Source: Shigella phage vB_SboS_Gloob
Length of the DNA stretch: 64,000 nt
Sequence record: OL615011
Reading direction: 5' to 3' (one strand)
Positions 3,250 through 49,226 of the stretch are shown piece by piece (position 1 is the stretch's first letter; each line of letters starts with the position of its first letter). The position numbers were made by a program, and so were the translations under genes. A model generated the notes under the pieces. It did not search any database and was not told the DNA's origin. It saw nothing but the letters and a program-made list of their open reading frames with translations.

Positions 3250-5582
3250 TCCTTCTTGATAACTTCGGTCAGGCCGTTGCGCAGGCCATAGCGGATGTTG
3301 TGAGGGAAGTACTCTTGGAACTCCTGCTCACGCTGACTGATGACAAACAGGTTGTTCCCGCCGAACTTATGCTTCAGCATCTCAACCGATTCCTGCACCC
3401 CGCGCTCGCTCATGTTCTCAAGGATTTCGTCCAGGACAAACAGGTTACATTGCACCGATGCCTTGAGGTTAGCCACGTCGCGCAGAGCCAGTGTCACAGC
3501 CAGGTTCAGGCGGCTCCGCTGGCCAGTAGACAGGGAGAAGATGCTCTGCCCCTTGCGACCTGCTGCACTCATGGTGATCTCAAAGGTATCGTCAACAACG
3601 ATGTCCAGGAACATGTTGAGGGCTTCAAGATACTCGTTGATCTTGCTATTGAGGAATGGCAAGTACAGGGCGATGATGCGCGCCTTGGTCTGGTCATCCT
3701 TCAAGAAGAACAGCAGGTGCTGTAAGTCCTGGAGTTCCTCATCTGCATCTTCACGGAGTTCATACAGAGCCTCCAGTTCACCTTCCAATGCAGCGATAGA
3801 GTTCTCCAGGTCGGCGGTAGGCGTCGGCTGTACAGCCAGTTTACGCTCCAGATCGGCAATGGACGCCACGAGAGGAGCACGACGGGCTTTCAGCTCGGCG
3901 ATCTTATCATCGACGGCTTTAATCCCGCTGACGGCATTCTCTCGCGTCTGTTGCAGCGACGCAGTGATGTCTTCAAAACGAACGTTCAGCGCCTTGCGGA
4001 TGTCAAGGATCTTCTGTTGGCATTCACGGTTCAGCGAATTACACTCAATCGTGGCCGCTTCATGGAACCCCTGAATGTCACGGTGCAGCTGCTTGATGTT
4101 GTCAACGATTTCGTCGGCCTGCTTGCGCATTGCATCCAGTTCGGCATCTAACACAGCAATGTCAGCAACCAGCTTGTCGTCCTGAGCCTTGTGACCATCA
4201 ATCAGGGCGGTGACATCGGCAGTGACCTTATCCAGCTGATCCAACTTCGCCTGCAGTTCCTGTATCTGAGGGTTGTACTTGCTCTCAATGCGCGCCTTGG
4301 TATCATCAGACACCAGCTGGGTGCATGTTGGGCAAGTCCCCATATCGTGGAAGCGCTTGATGGCCGCTTGATGACCATCCATTTCTGTTTGGAAACGGAT
4401 ACGGAAGTTCTCACCCTGTTGGCGGCGCTGGATAGCAGCGTTCAGAGTGTCCAGGTTGGCGTTGCGTTCGGTGAGCAGGGTGTTCTTGCTCTCGGCTACT
4501 GTAAAGGCGCGGTCGCGCAATACCTGGAGATCATGCTCCGCAGTAGACACTTCGATGCGCTCATAATCGTCAGCCTTGTCCTGAGCGGCATCCTTCACCG
4601 CCTGGATCTTGGTATCAAAGTCTTTCTTGACAGCCTCGATCTCCACCATGGATTCGTCATGAAGGCGGCTTTCCACCGTCTTCATTTCCTGAGTGGCTTC
4701 GAATTCCACGGCAGTGAGACGGGTGCGCTCCTCATTCTGCGCGGCAATGTCAGCGTCCAGCGATACCAGGGCTTCCTGTTGCTGTACAAGGATATCGGCC
4801 GACTGCTGTTGGATAAGGGCATTGGATTGCTCTATCTGCTGCAGCTGCGTCTTCTTGTTGGTGTGGTCAACAACCTTCAACGCACATTCATTCGCGATCG
4901 TGTCCAGCTTTTCGTTCGCTTTCTTGATGGATGCCTTGACATCTTCGTTCATCAGGCTGAAGAAGCCCAAGTCCCAGATAGTCTCCACCATCGCGCGACG
5001 GTCGGCGGTGTACATCTCCGTGAACGGAATGAACTTCTCTTTGCCCAGCACCAGAGAGTTCTCAAACATCTTCTGGTCCACGCCGATGAGGTTCACGATG
5101 TACTTGTTCATGTCGGCTTTGGCTGCTTCATTATCGATCTGCAACCACTTGCCGTCCACCATCTGGTAGACTTCAACAAAGTCAGGTTTAATGCCACGGC
5201 GAACCTTCCATTCGCTACCACGGCAGGCAAACTCCACCTCACCCACACATTCCTTGCGGCTCTGTGAGTTTACCAGGCCTGCCTTCTTCTCCTTCTTACT
5301 GTACGTGTCGTTGTACAGTACGAAGAACAGCAGCCACACCAGCATCGTGGATTTACCCGCGCCGTTATCGTCAGACGTGACGAGGGTAGCCGGGTTGCGC
5401 TGGTAATCAATCTCCATGAACTGATTACCGATGGAGCGGAAGTTCTTGGCGCGGCCTTTGCGGAAGGTCAGTTTGTGCGTAATGTTGTCACGCACTTCAA
5501 ATGGGACTTCGACCTCAACCGGAGTGTCGGCTTCCTTCAAAAGATTGCCAAATTTGGCCAGGATATCTGTGCTCTGAGTCAT
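3246..5582 (-). CDS. 46: recombination endonuclease subunit, Rad50/SbcC-like ATPase (T4 gp46-like)
   Basis: N-terminal Walker A (NGAGKST), long coiled coil with CPTC zinc hook, C-terminal signature LSTGQRSR and Walker B (FVLDE). Confidence 0.85.
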   Translation of the reverse strand: MTQSTDILAKFGNLLKEADTPVEVEVPFEVRDNITHKLTFRKGRAKNFRSIGNQFMEIDYQRNPATLVTSDDNGAGKSTMLVWLLFFVLYNDTYSKKEKKAGLVNSQSRKECVGEVEFACRGSEWKVRRGIKPDFVEVYQMVDGKWLQIDNEAAKADMNKYIVNLIGVDQKMFENSLVLGKEKFIPFTEMYTADRRAMVETIWDLGFFSLMNEDVKASIKKANEKLDTIANECALKVVDHTNKKTQLQQIEQSNALIQQQSADILVQQQEALVSLDADIAAQNEERTRLTAVEFEATQEMKTVESRLHDESMVEIEAVKKDFDTKIQAVKDAAQDKADDYERIEVSTAEHDLQVLRDRAFTVAESKNTLLTERNANLDTLNAAIQRRQQGENFRIRFQTEMDGHQAAIKRFHDMGTCPTCTQLVSDDTKARIESKYNPQIQELQAKLDQLDKVTADVTALIDGHKAQDDKLVADIAVLDAELDAMRKQADEIVDNIKQLHRDIQGFHEAATIECNSLNRECQQKILDIRKALNVRFEDITASLQQTRENAVSGIKAVDDKIAELKARRAPLVASIADLERKLAVQPTPTADLENSIAALEGELEALYELREDADEELQDLQHLLFFLKDDQTKARIIALYLPFLNSKINEYLEALNMFLDIVVDDTFEITMSAAGRKGQSIFSLSTGQRSRLNLAVTLALRDVANLKASVQCNLFVLDEILENMSERGVQESVEMLKHKFGGNNLFVISQREQEFQEYFPHNIRYGLRNGLTEVIKKD

Positions 5583-5583
5583 G

Positions 5584-6699
5584 TTATGCGTCCAGTTTGT
5601 TCAGGCGTTGTTGGGCAGCATTGTAGAAGTGCTCTGCAAGTTTACAGACGTTTTCAGGGCGCTGGATGTTGTTCCCGGCGCGGATATCCTTCTTCAGGAC
5701 TTCCACTGCATCGGTTGCCACCATCTCTTCGGTGACCTCAACCTTCTCAGCCGCCACGGTGATAGTCCGGTCGATGAAGTTGTAGTCAATGCACTTGCAG
5801 CGCTTCATGGCATCACAGAACTTTTCATAATGCTTAGCATTGTCGCGGTTCTGTACGATAACCTTAACGATTTGCCCTTCAATACCCAAGCCTGTGTTCA
5901 GCCATTCTGGGTCGATCCAGTTACCCTCATCGTCTGAGGACAACTTGGTGTAGTCATACTCCACATAGCGGAACAACGTCTGGTGCTCGCTGTTGGGGAT
6001 GAATACCTCTCCGCCGCGCATGTCGTCCACATAGAAGCCACGGTTGGTGCCGTCTTTGTAGTCTTCCCAATTCAGGTGATACGGAGTCCCAAGATACTGA
6101 ATGTTACCTTCCATCGAACGGGTATGGAAATGCCCCGTGTCGACCCTGTCAAACTTGGAAAGGAGCGCAACGTCGATCTGACCGTGATCACAAGTAGAGG
6201 ACTGGTACATTTTGAACCCCGCCAACTCCAGATGCGCAAAACAGTACTTGGCGTCCGTAGCGTGTATCGCCGCAATAGATGCATCGTAGTTTTCCTTATT
6301 GATCCACGGTAGGAGCAGAGTCTTGACACCCTCGATCATCACTTCGGTCGGTTCGCTGTAGTAGCAGTACACATCTGGGTCGAGTTCGTTCAGGTAGGAT
6401 GGCCAGTTGATGCGGTTGGACTCTTCCAGGGTGATGTCGTGGTTGCCAACAATGCCATTCCACTTGATACCAGCCTCTTTCAGCGCCGGAGTCAGCTCAT
6501 CTTTCAACCAGTCCTTGTCACGACCGTACATGAATTTGCGGACATCAAATGTGTCACCAAACTGCCACACCTCATGGATGTCGGAGGCGACAAGTTCAGG
6601 GATGAAATAATTGATGAGGTAGTTCTTGATGAAGTCGCGAACGTAACGGGAACCATTACGGCTCCCGATATGCAGATCGCCGATTTTAGCAATCGCCAT
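5584..6699 (-). CDS. 47: recombination nuclease subunit, Mre11/SbcD-like (T4 gp47-like)
   Basis: GDLHIG, GDTFD and GNHD phosphoesterase motifs, collinear with T4 gp47. Confidence 0.85.
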   Translation of the reverse strand: MAIAKIGDLHIGSRNGSRYVRDFIKNYLINYFIPELVASDIHEVWQFGDTFDVRKFMYGRDKDWLKDELTPALKEAGIKWNGIVGNHDITLEESNRINWPSYLNELDPDVYCYYSEPTEVMIEGVKTLLLPWINKENYDASIAAIHATDAKYCFAHLELAGFKMYQSSTCDHGQIDVALLSKFDRVDTGHFHTRSMEGNIQYLGTPYHLNWEDYKDGTNRGFYVDDMRGGEVFIPNSEHQTLFRYVEYDYTKLSSDDEGNWIDPEWLNTGLGIEGQIVKVIVQNRDNAKHYEKFCDAMKRCKCIDYNFIDRTITVAAEKVEVTEEMVATDAVEVLKKDIRAGNNIQRPENVCKLAEHFYNAAQQRLNKLDA

Positions 6700-46327: not shown

Positions 46328-48547
46328 TCACCGTCTCAGCCATTCTTCCATGGACATGCCAGAGCGTTCGTCATACACCTGAACTCCACCAAACCCTGGG
46401 ATACTCTCTATAGAGTGAGGATCTGGTGTTGAAAGCACACCCCCGAAAGGTAACATCTGAGATTCTTCCATCGCAGATAATCTTCCTCTCATGTCCACAG
46501 AGATACTTGAGTTTGTGAGATCACTAAACCATTCTTGTTTCACCGCCCATGCATAGAGCACGAGAGGCATCACACAGTCATCATGACAACCATCATCGGC
46601 TTCATACCTTGTCCCAGTCCATACGAATGTACTGAGTTCATCTATCGTGTCCTGGTCATCAACCACCAGCATCTCACGTTCGATAAGCGCCTTGAGGTTA
46701 GCACAACCATTCGAACGCACTTTCTTGTTCGTGTTGATGCCAGGCTCAGGGCGGCGACCACCAATTCGTTTGCCAGTACCCTTCGCATCTGTGGTAGTGA
46801 AGATGATCTCTGGGTATTCAATTTCCTGGTATAGAATTGTGATTACCTGGCCGCCCACGTCGTTGTTGGTTTCAACCAGCATCGGACACGTGCCATATTT
46901 CTCGCCCATGTCGGCGATAGTGTATGCATACATCATTGGAGGTATCGTGTTGTTCCGATACTTGGCCGCAATCTTGTGAGGATAGTCTGTGATGTCCAAG
47001 ATGGTAAGGACAGAGTAATCCCCCTCCACGCCTTTGCCTGTATCGGCGATACCCATGTAGATGCGCTTCGGATCGTAATCGTGATAGATCTTGGTGAACT
47101 CGTTCGGCTCCTGATAGAGTTTCGAGGTCATCTTGTCTAAGCACTTGGCCGGAATCAATGAACCGACGGAACCACGGAACTTGATACCGAATTCCTGATC
47201 GAAACGTGCATCGCCCAGCTTCGCCCTCTGTTTGGATTCCCAGTTCGGATCCTTGGTGTATGTTGGAACACGATACCAAGGCACCTCTGTGAGTTTGAAG
47301 TCGTTGTACTGAGGGTGTTCTGGGTTCGCCTTGGTGACGATGTCGTAGAACAACCCGCGCTGGCCTTTCGGCGTACTGGTCAAGATACAACGTGAAGTCT
47401 CTGCAGATGCAATCGCAGGGAATGTTGACTCCCAGAATTCAAAGTCATTTTCGATGAACGCCACTTCGTCCACATACAGGAGCGATACAGATCGACCACG
47501 GATAGAGTCAGAAGATGTCGCATAAGCATAGATCTTCGATCCGTTTTCGAACTCGATGAGCGTGGAGCCGAACTTCTCACAACCCTGCTGGAGGAAGAAT
47601 GGCAAATCCTGGTATGCCTTGCGGATACGGTCTAGGATTTCAATCGCCTGCTTCTCTTTGTTCGCCAGTACCGCGATCTCTTTGTCAGAGTGGAACATCG
47701 CATACCAGAGCAGGAACGCTGCTACGACTGTCGTGTTGTGGCTGAGGAAGCCGTTGGTGTAGTAGCGCTGATCACTAGATTTCACCTGTAGGTCATACAT
47801 GTGATGCATCTCACCAGTCTGCCATACCTCAACGACTTCTTCTAGACCTTCTTCGGTCATCAGCCGTGAACCAGCAACCAGATCTTTAGCAAACACTTCC
47901 TTCATGTTCTGATTGAAGAACATGTGATCATCGGCCACGTTGATACGACGACCACTGGAAGTGATGACAACGTACTCTTGGTACAGCTTGGTCTTGTGCG
48001 CGGCGATGACAGGCACCCAGCCTTTGTCACAGCGAACAAAATAACGCTTGCCGAAGCGGCTGTCTACGAACTTATCGTGTTTGCCAAAGGCATTCAGTGG
48101 CTCGGCGTGATTTGGTCCCTCGAAGCGGCTGTGAAGCTCCTCGATGGTGACTTTAAACTCTTCTTGGCTGAACGTATCGTAAACCTCGACGATGCTGTCA
48201 CCCTTCACACACTTGCCAGACTGACGCGCCTGGACTACGGCGTTGAAGCGGTGATCCTGGAAGTCATGGAACAGCTGCTTCTGATAATCATGCATATCGA
48301 AGAGGATGAAGCCCTTATCGATGGTCGTGATCTTGTAGTAGTTGGCGGCGAAGTAATGAGCGTCCATCGCGCACTCAACGAACTCCGATTCTTGATCGTC
48401 GGTCAACATCAACTCTACACGAGGAGCACGCACAGACGGCTTGCGCATGAACGTCTGGTCCATACGCAATCTGACATCATCAATCTTGAATCCCGTCTTT
48501 ATCGGGGCATATTCAATATCACGCTTCTGATACGCCATCGTCTTCAC
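46328..48547 (-). CDS. 17: terminase large subunit (T4 gp17-like), interrupted by a mini-intein in the Walker A P-loop
   Basis: Extein reads ARQSGK | TTVVAAF, matching T4 gp17 SRQLGKTTVVA; 739 aa including a 159-aa insert. Confidence 0.9.
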   Translation of the reverse strand: MKTMAYQKRDIEYAPIKTGFKIDDVRLRMDQTFMRKPSVRAPRVELMLTDDQESEFVECAMDAHYFAANYYKITTIDKGFILFDMHDYQKQLFHDFQDHRFNAVVQARQSGKCVKGDSIVEVYDTFSQEEFKVTIEELHSRFEGPNHAEPLNAFGKHDKFVDSRFGKRYFVRCDKGWVPVIAAHKTKLYQEYVVITSSGRRINVADDHMFFNQNMKEVFAKDLVAGSRLMTEEGLEEVVEVWQTGEMHHMYDLQVKSSDQRYYTNGFLSHNTTVVAAFLLWYAMFHSDKEIAVLANKEKQAIEILDRIRKAYQDLPFFLQQGCEKFGSTLIEFENGSKIYAYATSSDSIRGRSVSLLYVDEVAFIENDFEFWESTFPAIASAETSRCILTSTPKGQRGLFYDIVTKANPEHPQYNDFKLTEVPWYRVPTYTKDPNWESKQRAKLGDARFDQEFGIKFRGSVGSLIPAKCLDKMTSKLYQEPNEFTKIYHDYDPKRIYMGIADTGKGVEGDYSVLTILDITDYPHKIAAKYRNNTIPPMMYAYTIADMGEKYGTCPMLVETNNDVGGQVITILYQEIEYPEIIFTTTDAKGTGKRIGGRRPEPGINTNKKVRSNGCANLKALIEREMLVVDDQDTIDELSTFVWTGTRYEADDGCHDDCVMPLVLYAWAVKQEWFSDLTNSSISVDMRGRLSAMEESQMLPFGGVLSTPDPHSIESIPGFGGVQVYDERSGMSMEEWLRR
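47735..48211 (-). mobile_element. mini-intein (Hint domain, no homing-endonuclease domain) inside the terminase large subunit gene
   Basis: Begins with Cys (CVKGDSIVEV), ends ...MYDLQV...NGFLSHN, followed by Thr +1; 159 aa placed by codon arithmetic from the ORF start. Confidence 0.8.
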
Positions 48548-49226
48548 CTTCTTCCTTCGGCTCTGCCTGAACTTCGATTACATCTTCTTCGGGATCAGGT
48601 CCTTTGGACGCAGCTTTCGCTGCAGTACGTTCTTCAGCACGTTTACGGGCGTCTTCGATGGTCTTCAGTAGATCACGGGAAGACCTGGCCTGTTTGCCGA
48701 CGTTGACCGTGGTTGTACCATCAGGGGACGTGGTGACCTCGACAGTTGTTTCGTCCCCAGGAGGTGGCTCTTTGTCGCCTGTAACGGCCTTGATGGTCTT
48801 CTGGTTCTCCATCAGGTCTTTGTTCAGACCGCGCATGAGTTCGCCCAACTCTTTGAAGACTGTGAACGCGCGGGGTGCTTCAGTCGTCGTCGCGAGTTTG
48901 GCCGCCTGTCCCATCATGAACATCGTGGCTTCCTGCATGGCATAAGTCGTGTCACGGATGCGTTTGTAGTCGGTGGTGGCGTCCGTGTCTTCGAAGTCTG
49001 GAACCTTAGACTCCTTGGACTTCAGCTCTTCTGGGTCCAGAGAAGGAGGGAACACCACAGGCTCATACCCTGCAGGCTTTTCACCCAACCATTCGCCTGT
49101 ATCCGGATCATAATCTTTTCCAGCCACAGGCGAGGTCTTCTCCATGACTTCTTGAGCGACCTCATCCCGCGCTTGGATAGCACCGAGGGTGGACAATAGG
49201 CGTTCTGACATAGCACTCATAATCAA
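48519..49226 (-). CDS. 16: terminase small subunit (T4 gp16-like)
   Basis: DYKRIRDTTYAMQEATMFMMGQAAKL resembles T4 gp16 [22 protein letters not shown]; immediately upstream of the terminase large subunit. Confidence 0.7.
   Translation of the reverse strand: MIMSAMSERLLSTLGAIQARDEVAQEVMEKTSPVAGKDYDPDTGEWLGEKPAGYEPVVFPPSLDPEELKSKESKVPDFEDTDATTDYKRIRDTTYAMQEATMFMMGQAAKLATTTEAPRAFTVFKELGELMRGLNKDLMENQKTIKAVTGDKEPPPGDETTVEVTTSPDGTTTVNVGKQARSSRDLLKTIEDARKRAEERTAAKAASKGPDPEEDVIEVQAEPKEEGEDDGVSEA

Follow-up and report, generated by a model that had tools for sequence, protein, structure and literature searches.

Introduction

The large terminase subunit (TerL) is the commonest intein host among phage proteins, with 293 of the ~800 inteins recorded in PhagesDB (bioRxiv 10.1101/2025.01.02.630785). 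TerL inteins have been reported in the genome announcements of Salmonella phage Maynard in 2013 (PMC3868846) and Klebsiella phage Magnus in 2019 (PMC6763660), and the split inteins Cat, AceL-TerL and VidaL have been proven experimentally to splice in trans (reviewed in PMC11766414).

Here we analyse the TerL gene of Shigella phage vB_SboS_Gloob in a stretch of 64,000 nucleotides (sequence record OL615011), referred to below as the window. Over the whole window, identity to Shigella phage Ag3 (family Ackermannviridae) is ~98%, and the phage is an Ag3-like Agtrevirus of this family. An initial annotation, made from the nucleotide sequence, had proposed a 159-aa mini-intein at 47735-48211, in the P-loop of TerL. 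This claim is confirmed by the translation, the fold, the profiles and the invariant residues, and the insert is very probably a contiguous, cis-splicing class-1 mini-intein devoid of a homing endonuclease and lying within the TerL Walker A motif. The element is already known, in that the same intein at the same site has been annotated and published for sister phages; what is added here is its patchy distribution, a breakpoint inside the intein and its kinship to the atypically split TerL inteins.

Results

Terminase gene and position of the insert

The features of the locus are the following:

46328..48538, minus strand: coding sequence of the TerL precursor (T4 gp17-type), 736 aa from the probable ATG start at 48538 (basis: ORF, Pfam, PHROG, Ag3 match, start context)
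48212..48538, minus strand: N-extein, Met1-Lys109, ending in the first Walker A half ARQSGK and aligning with T4 gp17 to K166
47735..48211, minus strand: very probable class-1 mini-intein, 159 aa, Cys110-Asn268 of the 736-aa precursor (basis: translation, Pfam, AF2, Foldseek, profile)
48209..48211, minus strand: block A nucleophile Cys1, invariant in 19/19 family members and in all 27 extracted cis-inteins
47924..47935, minus strand: block B, A93-D94-D95-H96, with A93, D94 and H96 as invariant columns
47783..47800, minus strand: block F, MYDLQV, with M138 and D140 invariant; aligns with block F of the Cat, CDC21, VidaL and gp41-1 inteins
47735..47755, minus strand: block G, NGFLSHN, with penultimate His158 and terminal Asn159; L156, S157, H158 and N159 invariant
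47735-47737, minus strand: codon of Asn159
47732..47734, minus strand: +1 Thr, presumptive C-extein nucleophile and Walker A Thr (GK-T), corresponding to T167 of T4 gp17
46331..47734, minus strand: C-extein, remaining ATPase domain plus RNaseH-like nuclease domain (Pfam Terminase_6N/6C)
46328-46330, minus strand: TerL stop codon
48519..49220, minus strand: terminase small subunit gene (ORF 48519-49226; Ag3 annotation mapped onto the window)

The coordinates of the initial annotation are right, and the strand, which it left unstated, is the minus strand. Its protein length of 739 aa is that of the mechanically defined ORF, which spans 46328-48547 (minus strand) and opens with a GTG; however, the true TerL start is likely the ATG at 48538, giving 736 aa as in the Ag3 annotation, because this ATG is preceded by AAGGTGA, a Shine-Dalgarno-like stretch within which the GTG at 48547 itself falls. 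As T4 gp17 is 610 aa long, the proposal that the terminase exceeds it by ~130 aa holds.

Pfam analysis of the 739-aa ORF places Terminase_6N at residues 272-463 (E = 4e-17) and Terminase_6C at residues 501-658 (E = 3e-6); on TerL, PF03237 and PF17289 score 63 and 27.8 bits, respectively, both exceeding the cut-off. The PHROG family phrog_2 (terminase large subunit) also matches (E = 2e-55), and the gene is 98.3% identical in nucleotides to the TerL gene of Ag3. When the extein alone is aligned to T4 gp17, as had been suggested, the two are 31% identical (E = 9e-61) and colinear through Walker A. The host gene encodes a T4-type terminase large subunit, in which an ASCE ATPase with Walker A is joined to an RNaseH-like nuclease.

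The minus-strand translation of 47735-48211 contains 159 codons and no stops (CVKGDSIVEV...YYTNGFLSHN), whereas the plus strand has stops. The inserted DNA measures exactly 477 nt and sits in frame between AAG (Lys) and ACx (Thr), so that the insertion point separates Lys from Thr in the TerL Walker A, ARQSGK/TTVVAAF (the slash marks the site). The junctions read ...VVQARQSGK, then C...HN, then TTVVAAFLLWYA; a Cys directly after Gly-Lys, a His-Asn end and a following Thr, as originally described, are thus seen in both translation and junctions. Excision also restores the expected T4-like motif, since ARQSGKTTVVAAF is colinear with T4 gp17 162-RQLGKTTVVAIF and identical to the uninterrupted alleles P0015-P0019.

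Identity of the insert as a mini-intein

The AF2 model of the insert (pLDDT 95.1, pTM 0.88) shows one compact domain, in which residues 23-43 form a short helical linker. In a Foldseek search against the PDB, every one of the top 50 matches is an intein or a BIL domain (probability 1.00, TM up to 0.81), and the best fold match is the VidaL intein (E = 8e-12, TM 0.76/0.83); the model and the search together reveal the horseshoe beta fold of the HINT (Hedgehog/intein) domain. A family profile searched against the PDB recovers gp41-1 (2.9e-11), VidaL (3.2e-10), CatC (1.9e-8, as compared to E = 0.0038 with the single sequence) and NrdJ-1 (4e-4).

The match to intein profiles foreseen in the initial annotation is therefore borne out by Pfam Intein_splicing (PF14890, E = 2e-8 with the single sequence) and by the family profile, but the single-sequence scores stay below the curated cut-offs. 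PF14890 reaches 34.6 bits against a gathering cut-off of 35.8 bits, 1.2 bits short, and the NCBIfam models for the two intein termini, TIGR01445 and TIGR01443, reach 16.9 of 24.5 and 13.2 of 15.6 bits, respectively; NCBIfam intein_Cterm matches block G weakly (E = 0.08) and a PHROGs search with the intein alone found no family. These scores are near-misses for a divergent phage subfamily, and neither the family profile nor the fold search leaves any ambiguity.

Homologues were gathered using the full TerL as query together with an exhaustive representative search. The extracted cis-inteins are 150-181 aa long, and at 32-77% identity the homologues keep C1, A93, D94, H96, M138, D140, L156, S157, H158 and N159 invariant. 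All intein-bearing alleles (27 cis homologues) have Thr or Ser at +1. The insert of Gloob has the features of a class-1 intein, namely the Cys1 nucleophile, the block F Asp, the penultimate His with terminal Asn and the +1 Thr; MYDLQV and NGFLSHN, initially noted as block F- and G-like motifs, do align with the corresponding blocks of solved inteins. The His of block B is the essential residue, and inteins devoid of the Thr of this block exist. In the present family, block B is ADDH rather than TxxH: His96 is invariant and Ala replaces Thr in every member. The pairing of Cys1 with Thr+1 is a known combination, found in ~12% of inteins (review PMC11766414). A class 3 intein (WCT) was rejected, given that the insert has Cys1 and that its block F, MYDLQV, contains no Cys.

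No homing-endonuclease family occurs among the Pfam matches to the insert, where only HINT families are found, and with 159 aa folded as a single compact domain there is indeed no room for such an enzyme. Between blocks B and F there is no LAGLIDADG, HNH or GIY-YIG domain, as befits a mini-intein; a degenerate endonuclease remnant was rejected for want of both space and match.

Inferred dependence of the terminase on splicing

Each genome record has a single TerL place, on which ground a further, uninterrupted TerL copy in the genome was rejected. Furthermore, an interrupted gene with an intein identity of at least 60% is present in ~280 records of isolated phages. Because these viable isolates have one TerL locus per genome, and this locus is interrupted, the precursor must mature into an active terminase. 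Searching the available literature, we found no experimental splicing evidence for any Ackermannviridae TerL intein, that of Gloob included; we infer splicing of the Gloob TerL, and its efficiency, from the single-locus viability of the ~280 isolates and from the trans-splicing of the related Cat, AceL-TerL and VidaL.

Following the established chemistry of class-1 inteins, the reaction would proceed as follows. The 736-aa precursor would be translated with an inactive ATPase, which could not work because the Lys and the Thr of the P-loop stand 159 residues apart. After translation the HINT domain would fold, and Cys1, with the block B His assisting, would attack the carbonyl of Lys(-1) (N-S acyl shift). 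The hydroxyl of the +1 Thr would then attack the thioester (transesterification) to yield the branched intermediate, and cyclisation of Asn159, with the help of His158 and the block F Asp, would free the 159-aa intein. Finally, an O-N shift would form the Lys-Thr peptide bond, producing a TerL of 577 aa whose ARQSGKTT P-loop is intact.

Distribution and evolution of the intein

The survey of related phages advised in the initial annotation returned intein-free alleles with an intact site. Empty sites are present in P0015-P0019, Erwinia phage phiEa2809, Vibrio phages D510 and YC, and T4 gp17; the uninterrupted syntenic relatives, including phiEa2809 and Vibrio phage YC, read ARQSGKTTVVAAFLLWYA at this position, and the gene order of the intein-free alleles is gp13-gp14-gp15-terS-terL-gp18-gp19-portal. 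The intein is therefore dispensable, since closely related phages (phiEa2809, Vibrio phage YC, P0015) do without it.

The distribution of the intein within the family is patchy. In the extein tree, the intein-free P0015, whose extein identity is 84%, is sister to the intein-bearing crown group in 200/200 bootstraps, run on a fast distance routine, and the intein-bearing P0012, P0013 and P0014 branch outside. In addition, the similarities of intein and extein are incongruent, as the Gloob intein is 96% identical to that of Limestonevirus (LIMEstone1) but 76% to that of AV101, whose extein is 97% identical, and a sharp mosaic (recombination) breakpoint lies inside the intein. These three observations, together with F-LimIX, a gene for a free-standing homing endonuclease which in LIMEstone1 lies immediately between terS and terL, would suit an intein that is still mobile among co-infecting Ackermannviridae through endonucleases encoded elsewhere ("collaborative homing", in which a free-standing enzyme cuts the intein-free terL). 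On the other hand, the mosaic patch does not match the intein borders and has the form expected of homologous recombination between two intein-bearing alleles. Moreover, in Gloob terS overlaps the TerL start and therefore leaves no free-standing endonuclease gene between the two, nor does any endonuclease gene adjoin terL in the window. Intein divergence also broadly follows extein divergence (57% versus 73% identity for P0014; 68% versus 81% for P0012), which fits vertical descent with losses. Taken together, we regard continued mobility of this kind as rather improbable.

The intein is old in the phage family, mostly vertically inherited and under purifying selection, with dN/dS values, usable within the Aglimvirinae only as dS is saturated between subfamilies, of 0.04-0.19 for the intein and 0.02-0.04 for the extein. 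A recent horizontal acquisition was rejected because the GC content of the intein equals that of the extein (0.501 versus 0.499). Having no endonuclease, such an intein moves only passively; its transfer would occur by homologous recombination between co-infecting phages, and the same route could remove it precisely.

Discussion

The purifying selection on the intein and its persistence without a homing endonuclease in several genera could also be read as the signature of a domesticated post-translational switch, with splicing conditional on redox state, temperature, TerS, binding of DNA or prohead, or time, which would keep the packaging ATPase/nuclease silent until late infection. The benefit of such a switch would explain why an endonuclease-less intein is kept, and the intein does sit in the catalytic P-loop, where the activity of the precursor must be nil. 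Conditional splicing has reportedly been documented for the RadA intein. It has been argued that P-loop inteins in general may be kept for function (PMC4760082). However, phiEa2809, Vibrio phage YC and P0015 show that close relatives dispense with the intein, and a P-loop intein should in any case be under purifying selection, given that every defect in splicing is lethal. A redox trap was rejected as well, since C1 is the only invariant Cys and the family conserves no second Cys to pair with it. A role as a switch is, in our opinion, very unlikely.

It is extremely unlikely that the insert is a non-splicing HINT-derived domain (pretoxin-HINT or bacterial intein-like) kept in the mature terminase for a structural or regulatory purpose: several Dickeya phage records do label the gene "pretoxin HINT domain protein" and Pfam PT-HINT (PF07591) gives a weak match (E = 3.6e-4), but its 21.2 bits lie under both the Intein_splicing score and the PT-HINT cut-off of 27.7, what comes after the insert is the ATPase and nuclease part of TerL and not a toxin domain, the splicing residues are all invariant, the terminal Asn and the +1 nucleophile among them, insert-free orthologues have a normal P-loop, and a domain left in place would abolish ATP binding because it splits the GK/T of Walker A.

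The mature terminase should be annotated as 577 aa, not 736 or 739 aa, TerL phylogenies and clustering should use the extein only, and the "pretoxin HINT" label on the Dickeya phage TerL is misleading. As a short, mesophilic, presumably cis-splicing Cys1/Thr+1 intein akin to the engineered Cat, VidaL and AceL-TerL, it may find use in protein engineering or in experiments asking if P-loop inteins regulate the proteins that carry them, helped by the ease with which the source phages of the family (E. coli, Shigella, Salmonella) are grown. We attach little weight to the broader proposal that the intein times or conditionally switches the packaging motor (a splicing-gated ATPase) in enterobacterial Ackermannviridae and/or is exchanged with the help of F-LimIX-type endonucleases; if it were true, the patchiness, the incongruence and the kinship to split inteins would reflect an ongoing cycle of gain, loss and fracture at the terminase P-loop.

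Comparison with known systems

The TerL intein of the Salmonella phages Maynard and Marshall (Kuttervirus) is an orthologue of the Gloob intein, with the same gene, GK/T site, length (159 aa) and residue numbering. Indeed, the Maynard RefSeq record NC_022768 carries a mat_peptide, "intein from Cys110-Asn268", whose boundaries are those found in Gloob, while in the RefSeq record of Ag3 the intein is not annotated. Relative to Maynard/Marshall, the intein is 73% and the extein 89% identical; Gloob differs from them in genus (Agtrevirus) and in carrying a Limestonevirus-like intein allele.

AceL-TerL, GOS-TerL, the consensus Cat (PDB 6DSL) and VidaL (PDB 6VGV) belong to the same sequence family as the Gloob intein. 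About 100 of the 150 best library matches are ORFs which start at intein position ~46 and run into the TerL C-extein, and in the one case checked, contig L013, the intein is split at the same GK/T site. In contrast to these split inteins, made of a short IntN and a long IntC ORF, the Gloob intein is contiguous in one reading frame and uses Cys1/Thr+1 in its native context; membership of the naturally split AceL-TerL/GOS-TerL type was rejected for its single uninterrupted frame, though the two are homologous. A 14-residue linker of lowest pLDDT (residues ~33-46) marks, in the Gloob intein, the place where the split relatives break.

The TerL inteins of actinobacteriophages (mycobacteriophages) are also inserted in ATPase nucleotide-binding motifs (bioRxiv 10.1101/2025.01.02.630785; PMC4760082), but their hosts are other terminase families, and many of them either belong to class 3 or contain an endonuclease domain, of the LAGLIDADG or another type. 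Likewise, the P-loop inteins at DnaB site b, MCM site a, RFC-S site a and in RecA/RadA lie inside Walker A and make the ATPase dependent on splicing (PMC4760082), in host proteins different from TerL; the DnaB, RecA and RadA inteins are among the structural neighbours of the insert, with an identity of only 13-17%. The Gloob TerL adds one more example to a bias that is well documented, namely that of inteins towards the P-loops of ATPases, phage terminases among them.

The terminase gene and its insert

As judged from its sequence, the protein that carries the insert belongs to the T4-type terminase large subunits (TerL): both Pfam Terminase_6N and Terminase_6C exceed their cut-offs, PHROG phrog_2 is matched at E = 2e-55, and the extein (TerL minus the insert) is 31% identical to T4 gp17 (E = 9e-61). 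The gene is located in a T4-like block, gp13-gp14-gp15-terS-terL-gp18-gp19-portal, and its DNA is 98.3% identical to that of Shigella phage Ag3 (Ackermannviridae, Aglimvirinae, Agtrevirus) and 87–98% identical to that of other Aglimvirinae members. The insert occupies exactly the positions assigned to it in the initial annotation, 47735-48211, and lies on the minus strand, where 159 stop-free codons are read (CVKGDSIVEVYD...MYDLQVKSSDQRYYTNGFLSHN); the plus-strand translation of the same segment contains many stops.

46328-48547, minus strand: mechanical ORF holding the insert, 739 aa from a GTG (ORF listing)

The terminase length of 739 aa claimed initially holds for this mechanical ORF, but the precursor more probably has 736 aa, since the ATG at 48538 (minus strand) is preceded by AAGGTGA and the same ATG is the start annotated in the Ag3 RefSeq record; the GTG (48547) falls within this Shine-Dalgarno-like stretch. 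The insert would then correspond to Cys110-Asn268. As had been proposed, it starts with Cys directly after the P-loop GK (...VVQARQSGK/CVKGD..., the slash marking the junction) and ends with His-Asn followed by Thr (...FLSHN/TTVVAAFLLWYA). Removal of the 477 nt fuses AAG (Lys) with ACG (Thr) and indeed restores a T4-like motif, ARQSGKTTVVAAF, which aligns without gaps to R162-Q-L-G-K166-T167-TVVAIF of T4 gp17.

The suggested survey for intein-free alleles at the same site was successful. Uninterrupted TerL alleles of close relatives read ARQSGKTTVVAAFLLWYA, and at the DNA level the insertion falls precisely at the boundary of the Lys and Thr codons. Empty alleles of this type (P0015, with 84% extein identity, and P0016-P0019, with 73–76%) share gene order with the window. 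Among cultured Ackermannviridae, the empty site is found in Erwinia phages phiEa2809 and Bue1 (Nezavisimistyvirus) and Vibrio phage YC (Campanilevirus); it also occurs in many Vibrio phages.

Identity of the insert and proposed splicing mechanism

Taken as a single sequence, the insert gives profile evidence for an intein that is positive yet marginal. The search against intein HMMs agreed with the initial annotation in that Pfam Intein_splicing is matched at E = 2e-8, but the score (34.6 bits) is below the cut-off (35.8), as are those of the NCBIfam N- and C-terminal intein models; the match to Pfam PT-HINT is weaker than that to Intein_splicing. With phmmer, the insert reaches PDB entries only at E = 0.004-0.03, namely the Cat (consensus of the atypically split AceL-TerL and GOS-TerL), CDC21, VidaL and gp41-1 inteins.

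The alignment of 19 homologous inserts from TerL homologues (150-181 aa, 32-77% identical to the query) is more informative. Residues C1, K47, F48, G64, T74, Y77, A93, D94, H96, M138, D140, Y150, T152, L156, S157, H158 and N159 are invariant, a set which takes in the nucleophile of block A, the His of block B, the Asp of block F (D140) and the His-Asn pair of block G (H158-N159), so that the block F- and G-like motifs noticed initially are substantiated. The +1 residue is Thr or Ser without exception, and block B reads ADDH, deviating from TxxH, in every family member. The 19-insert profile matches gp41-1 (2.9e-11), VidaL (3.2e-10) and CatC (1.9e-8) in the PDB, together with the CDC21 inteins and NrdJ-1. 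AlphaFold2, run from the alignment, returned a confident all-beta HINT model (mean pLDDT 95.1, pTM 0.88), whose sole soft part is a helical linker at residues 31-50; a Foldseek search of the PDB with this model gave inteins or intein-like BIL domains as all of its best 50 matches, headed by VidaL (E = 8e-12). Conservation, profile matches and structure therefore settle the intein question. An endonuclease domain, for which the insert offers neither room nor a profile match, is lacking as initially claimed, hence a mini-intein; the presence of Cys1 and a block F without Cys assign it to class 1 and rule out class 3. Overall, we regard the insert as very probably a functional class-1 mini-intein.

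We infer the mechanism by applying established class-1 chemistry to the residues present. With help from His96, Cys1 would undergo an N-S acyl shift, the resulting thioester would be attacked by the Thr+1 hydroxyl (transesterification), Asn159 would cyclise with the assistance of His158 and Asp140, and an O-N shift would finish the peptide bond. With the Walker A Lys and Thr kept apart in the precursor, splicing would be a prerequisite for both ATPase and packaging activity; it presumably runs efficiently in vivo, since about 280 plaque-forming isolates have only an interrupted terL. A regulatory or still-mobile role of the intein appears improbable.

Distribution, selection and recombination

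A tblastn search with the intein retrieved 309 phage records, 278 of them at >=60% identity, all from enterobacterial Ackermannviridae (Kuttervirus, Agtrevirus, Limestonevirus, Taipeivirus and Serratia phages); copies with 28-42% identity reside in the TerL of Salicola SCTP-2, Delftia PhiW-14, Campylobacter CPt10 and CP21, and Vibrio vB_VmeM-32. Each genome has one TerL locus. On the extein NJ tree, the intein is patchily distributed: intein-free P0015 is sister of the intein-bearing crown group (200/200 bootstraps), the intein-bearing P0012, P0013 and P0014 branch outside (P0014 basal in 166/200), and two more intein-free clades have 200/200 bootstraps each. To produce this pattern, the intein must have been lost precisely at least three times or gained repeatedly. 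Within Aglimvirinae, dN/dS is 0.04-0.19 for the intein versus 0.02-0.04 for the exteins; thus the intein is under purifying selection, yet less constrained than the exteins. GC content is equal in the two.

Similarities of the intein do not parallel those of the extein: the window intein is 96% identical to that of Dickeya phage LIMEstone1 and 76% to that of Escherichia phage AV101, whereas the extein is 96% and 97% identical, respectively. Compared with AV101, gene nucleotides ~270-720 (window ~47819-48269), a patch of ~450 nt comprising the N-extein end and the first three quarters of the intein, show 63-82% identity, and the adjoining 180 nt (gene 721-900, window ~47639-47818), covering the intein end and C-extein start, 99-100%. 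The gene is therefore a mosaic in which recombination has left a breakpoint within the intein, near its residue 125. Since the borders of the patch differ from those of the intein, ordinary homologous recombination between intein-bearing alleles suffices to explain it.

In LIMEstone1, a free-standing homing endonuclease gene, F-LimIX (809-1693 of the compared DNA), is flanked immediately by terS and the intein-bearing terL. The window lacks such a gene, and its terS and terL overlap. The position of F-LimIX could bear on mobilisation of the endonuclease-less intein or of the terL region.

Other insertions in TerL and P-loop proteins

An exhaustive search of 1.84 billion representatives gave 738 matches at E<=1e-3 (347 at E<=1e-10). 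Some of these, close homologues of the window intein, carry C-exteins unlike TerL after the GK junction, such as TLIAKKLAEEIFGD, TTILNAIAFAFYDK and TNVGKTLFLCH (e.g., P0149, P0155, P0169, P0251 and P0254), so this intein lineage would also occupy GK/[ST] in the P-loops of other ATPases. Campylobacter phage CPt10 (78-2273 of the compared DNA) has a homologous TerL intein (~29% identity; ...QPRQ/CIEANT...VLSHN/SSKSTT) inserted two residues upstream relative to that of the window; the family therefore uses a shifted P-loop insertion point too.

Three TerL homologues with the P-loop mini-intein, P0050 (838 aa), P0062 (815 aa) and P0126 (923 aa), have a gapped Terminase_6N match. Together with their extra length, this suggests that a second insertion, which may be another intein, lies deeper in the ATPase domain; in P0062, positions 374-413 show weak similarity to Intein_splicing. 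P0066 (Vibrio phage VP-1), P0083 (Vibrio phage K469) and P0053, all annotated as TerL, contain a GIY-YIG domain straight after the ATPase domain and no Terminase_6C nuclease domain, likely reflecting a homing endonuclease gene or intron that interrupts terL and was read through by gene callers.

Comparison with known inteins

RefSeq records of Salmonella phages Maynard ("intein from Cys110-Asn268", mat_peptides) and Marshall carry the orthologous intein as a feature. It was described for Maynard in 2013 (PMC3868846), and a TerL intein is likewise reported in the announcement of Magnus, a Klebsiella phage of the Ackermannviridae (PMC6763660), so the finding is correct yet already known; terminases are a recognised intein hot spot (PMC4760082; bioRxiv 10.1101/2025.01.02.630785; PMC8228797). 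Annotation is inconsistent across the records compared (NC_013693 for Ag3; KM209228, KM209320 and KJ716335 for Dickeya phages): the Ag3 record has no intein feature in TerL, several Dickeya phage records label TerL "pretoxin HINT domain protein", and some records give it as hypothetical. Patchy distribution, intragenic mosaicism and the link to atypically split TerL inteins are absent from these earlier notes and constitute modest additions.

As for this link, about 100 of the best 150 matches of the exhaustive search are proteins starting at intein position ~46 and running through SHN into a TerL-like C-extein, [ST][ST]xxxxxxLW..F. Furthermore, a metagenomic T4-like contig (L013) encodes at 3424-5788 a naturally split TerL with the same GK/T site:

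3424-3915: N-extein (...CRQSGK) and 53-aa IntN
3900-4028: intervening 42-aa ORF
4001-5788: 124-aa IntC (MSSLLSESVDRKF... through ...GILSHN) and C-extein TTVVGAF...

This layout is the "atypical" split architecture, a short IntN with a long IntC, known from AceL-TerL and GOS-TerL, the source of Cat (PMC11766414), and the PDB matches of the window intein to CatC and VidaL agree with that family. By sequence comparison, the window intein is thus best described as a contiguous form of the atypically split TerL inteins, the split point of its relatives corresponding to its low-confidence linker.
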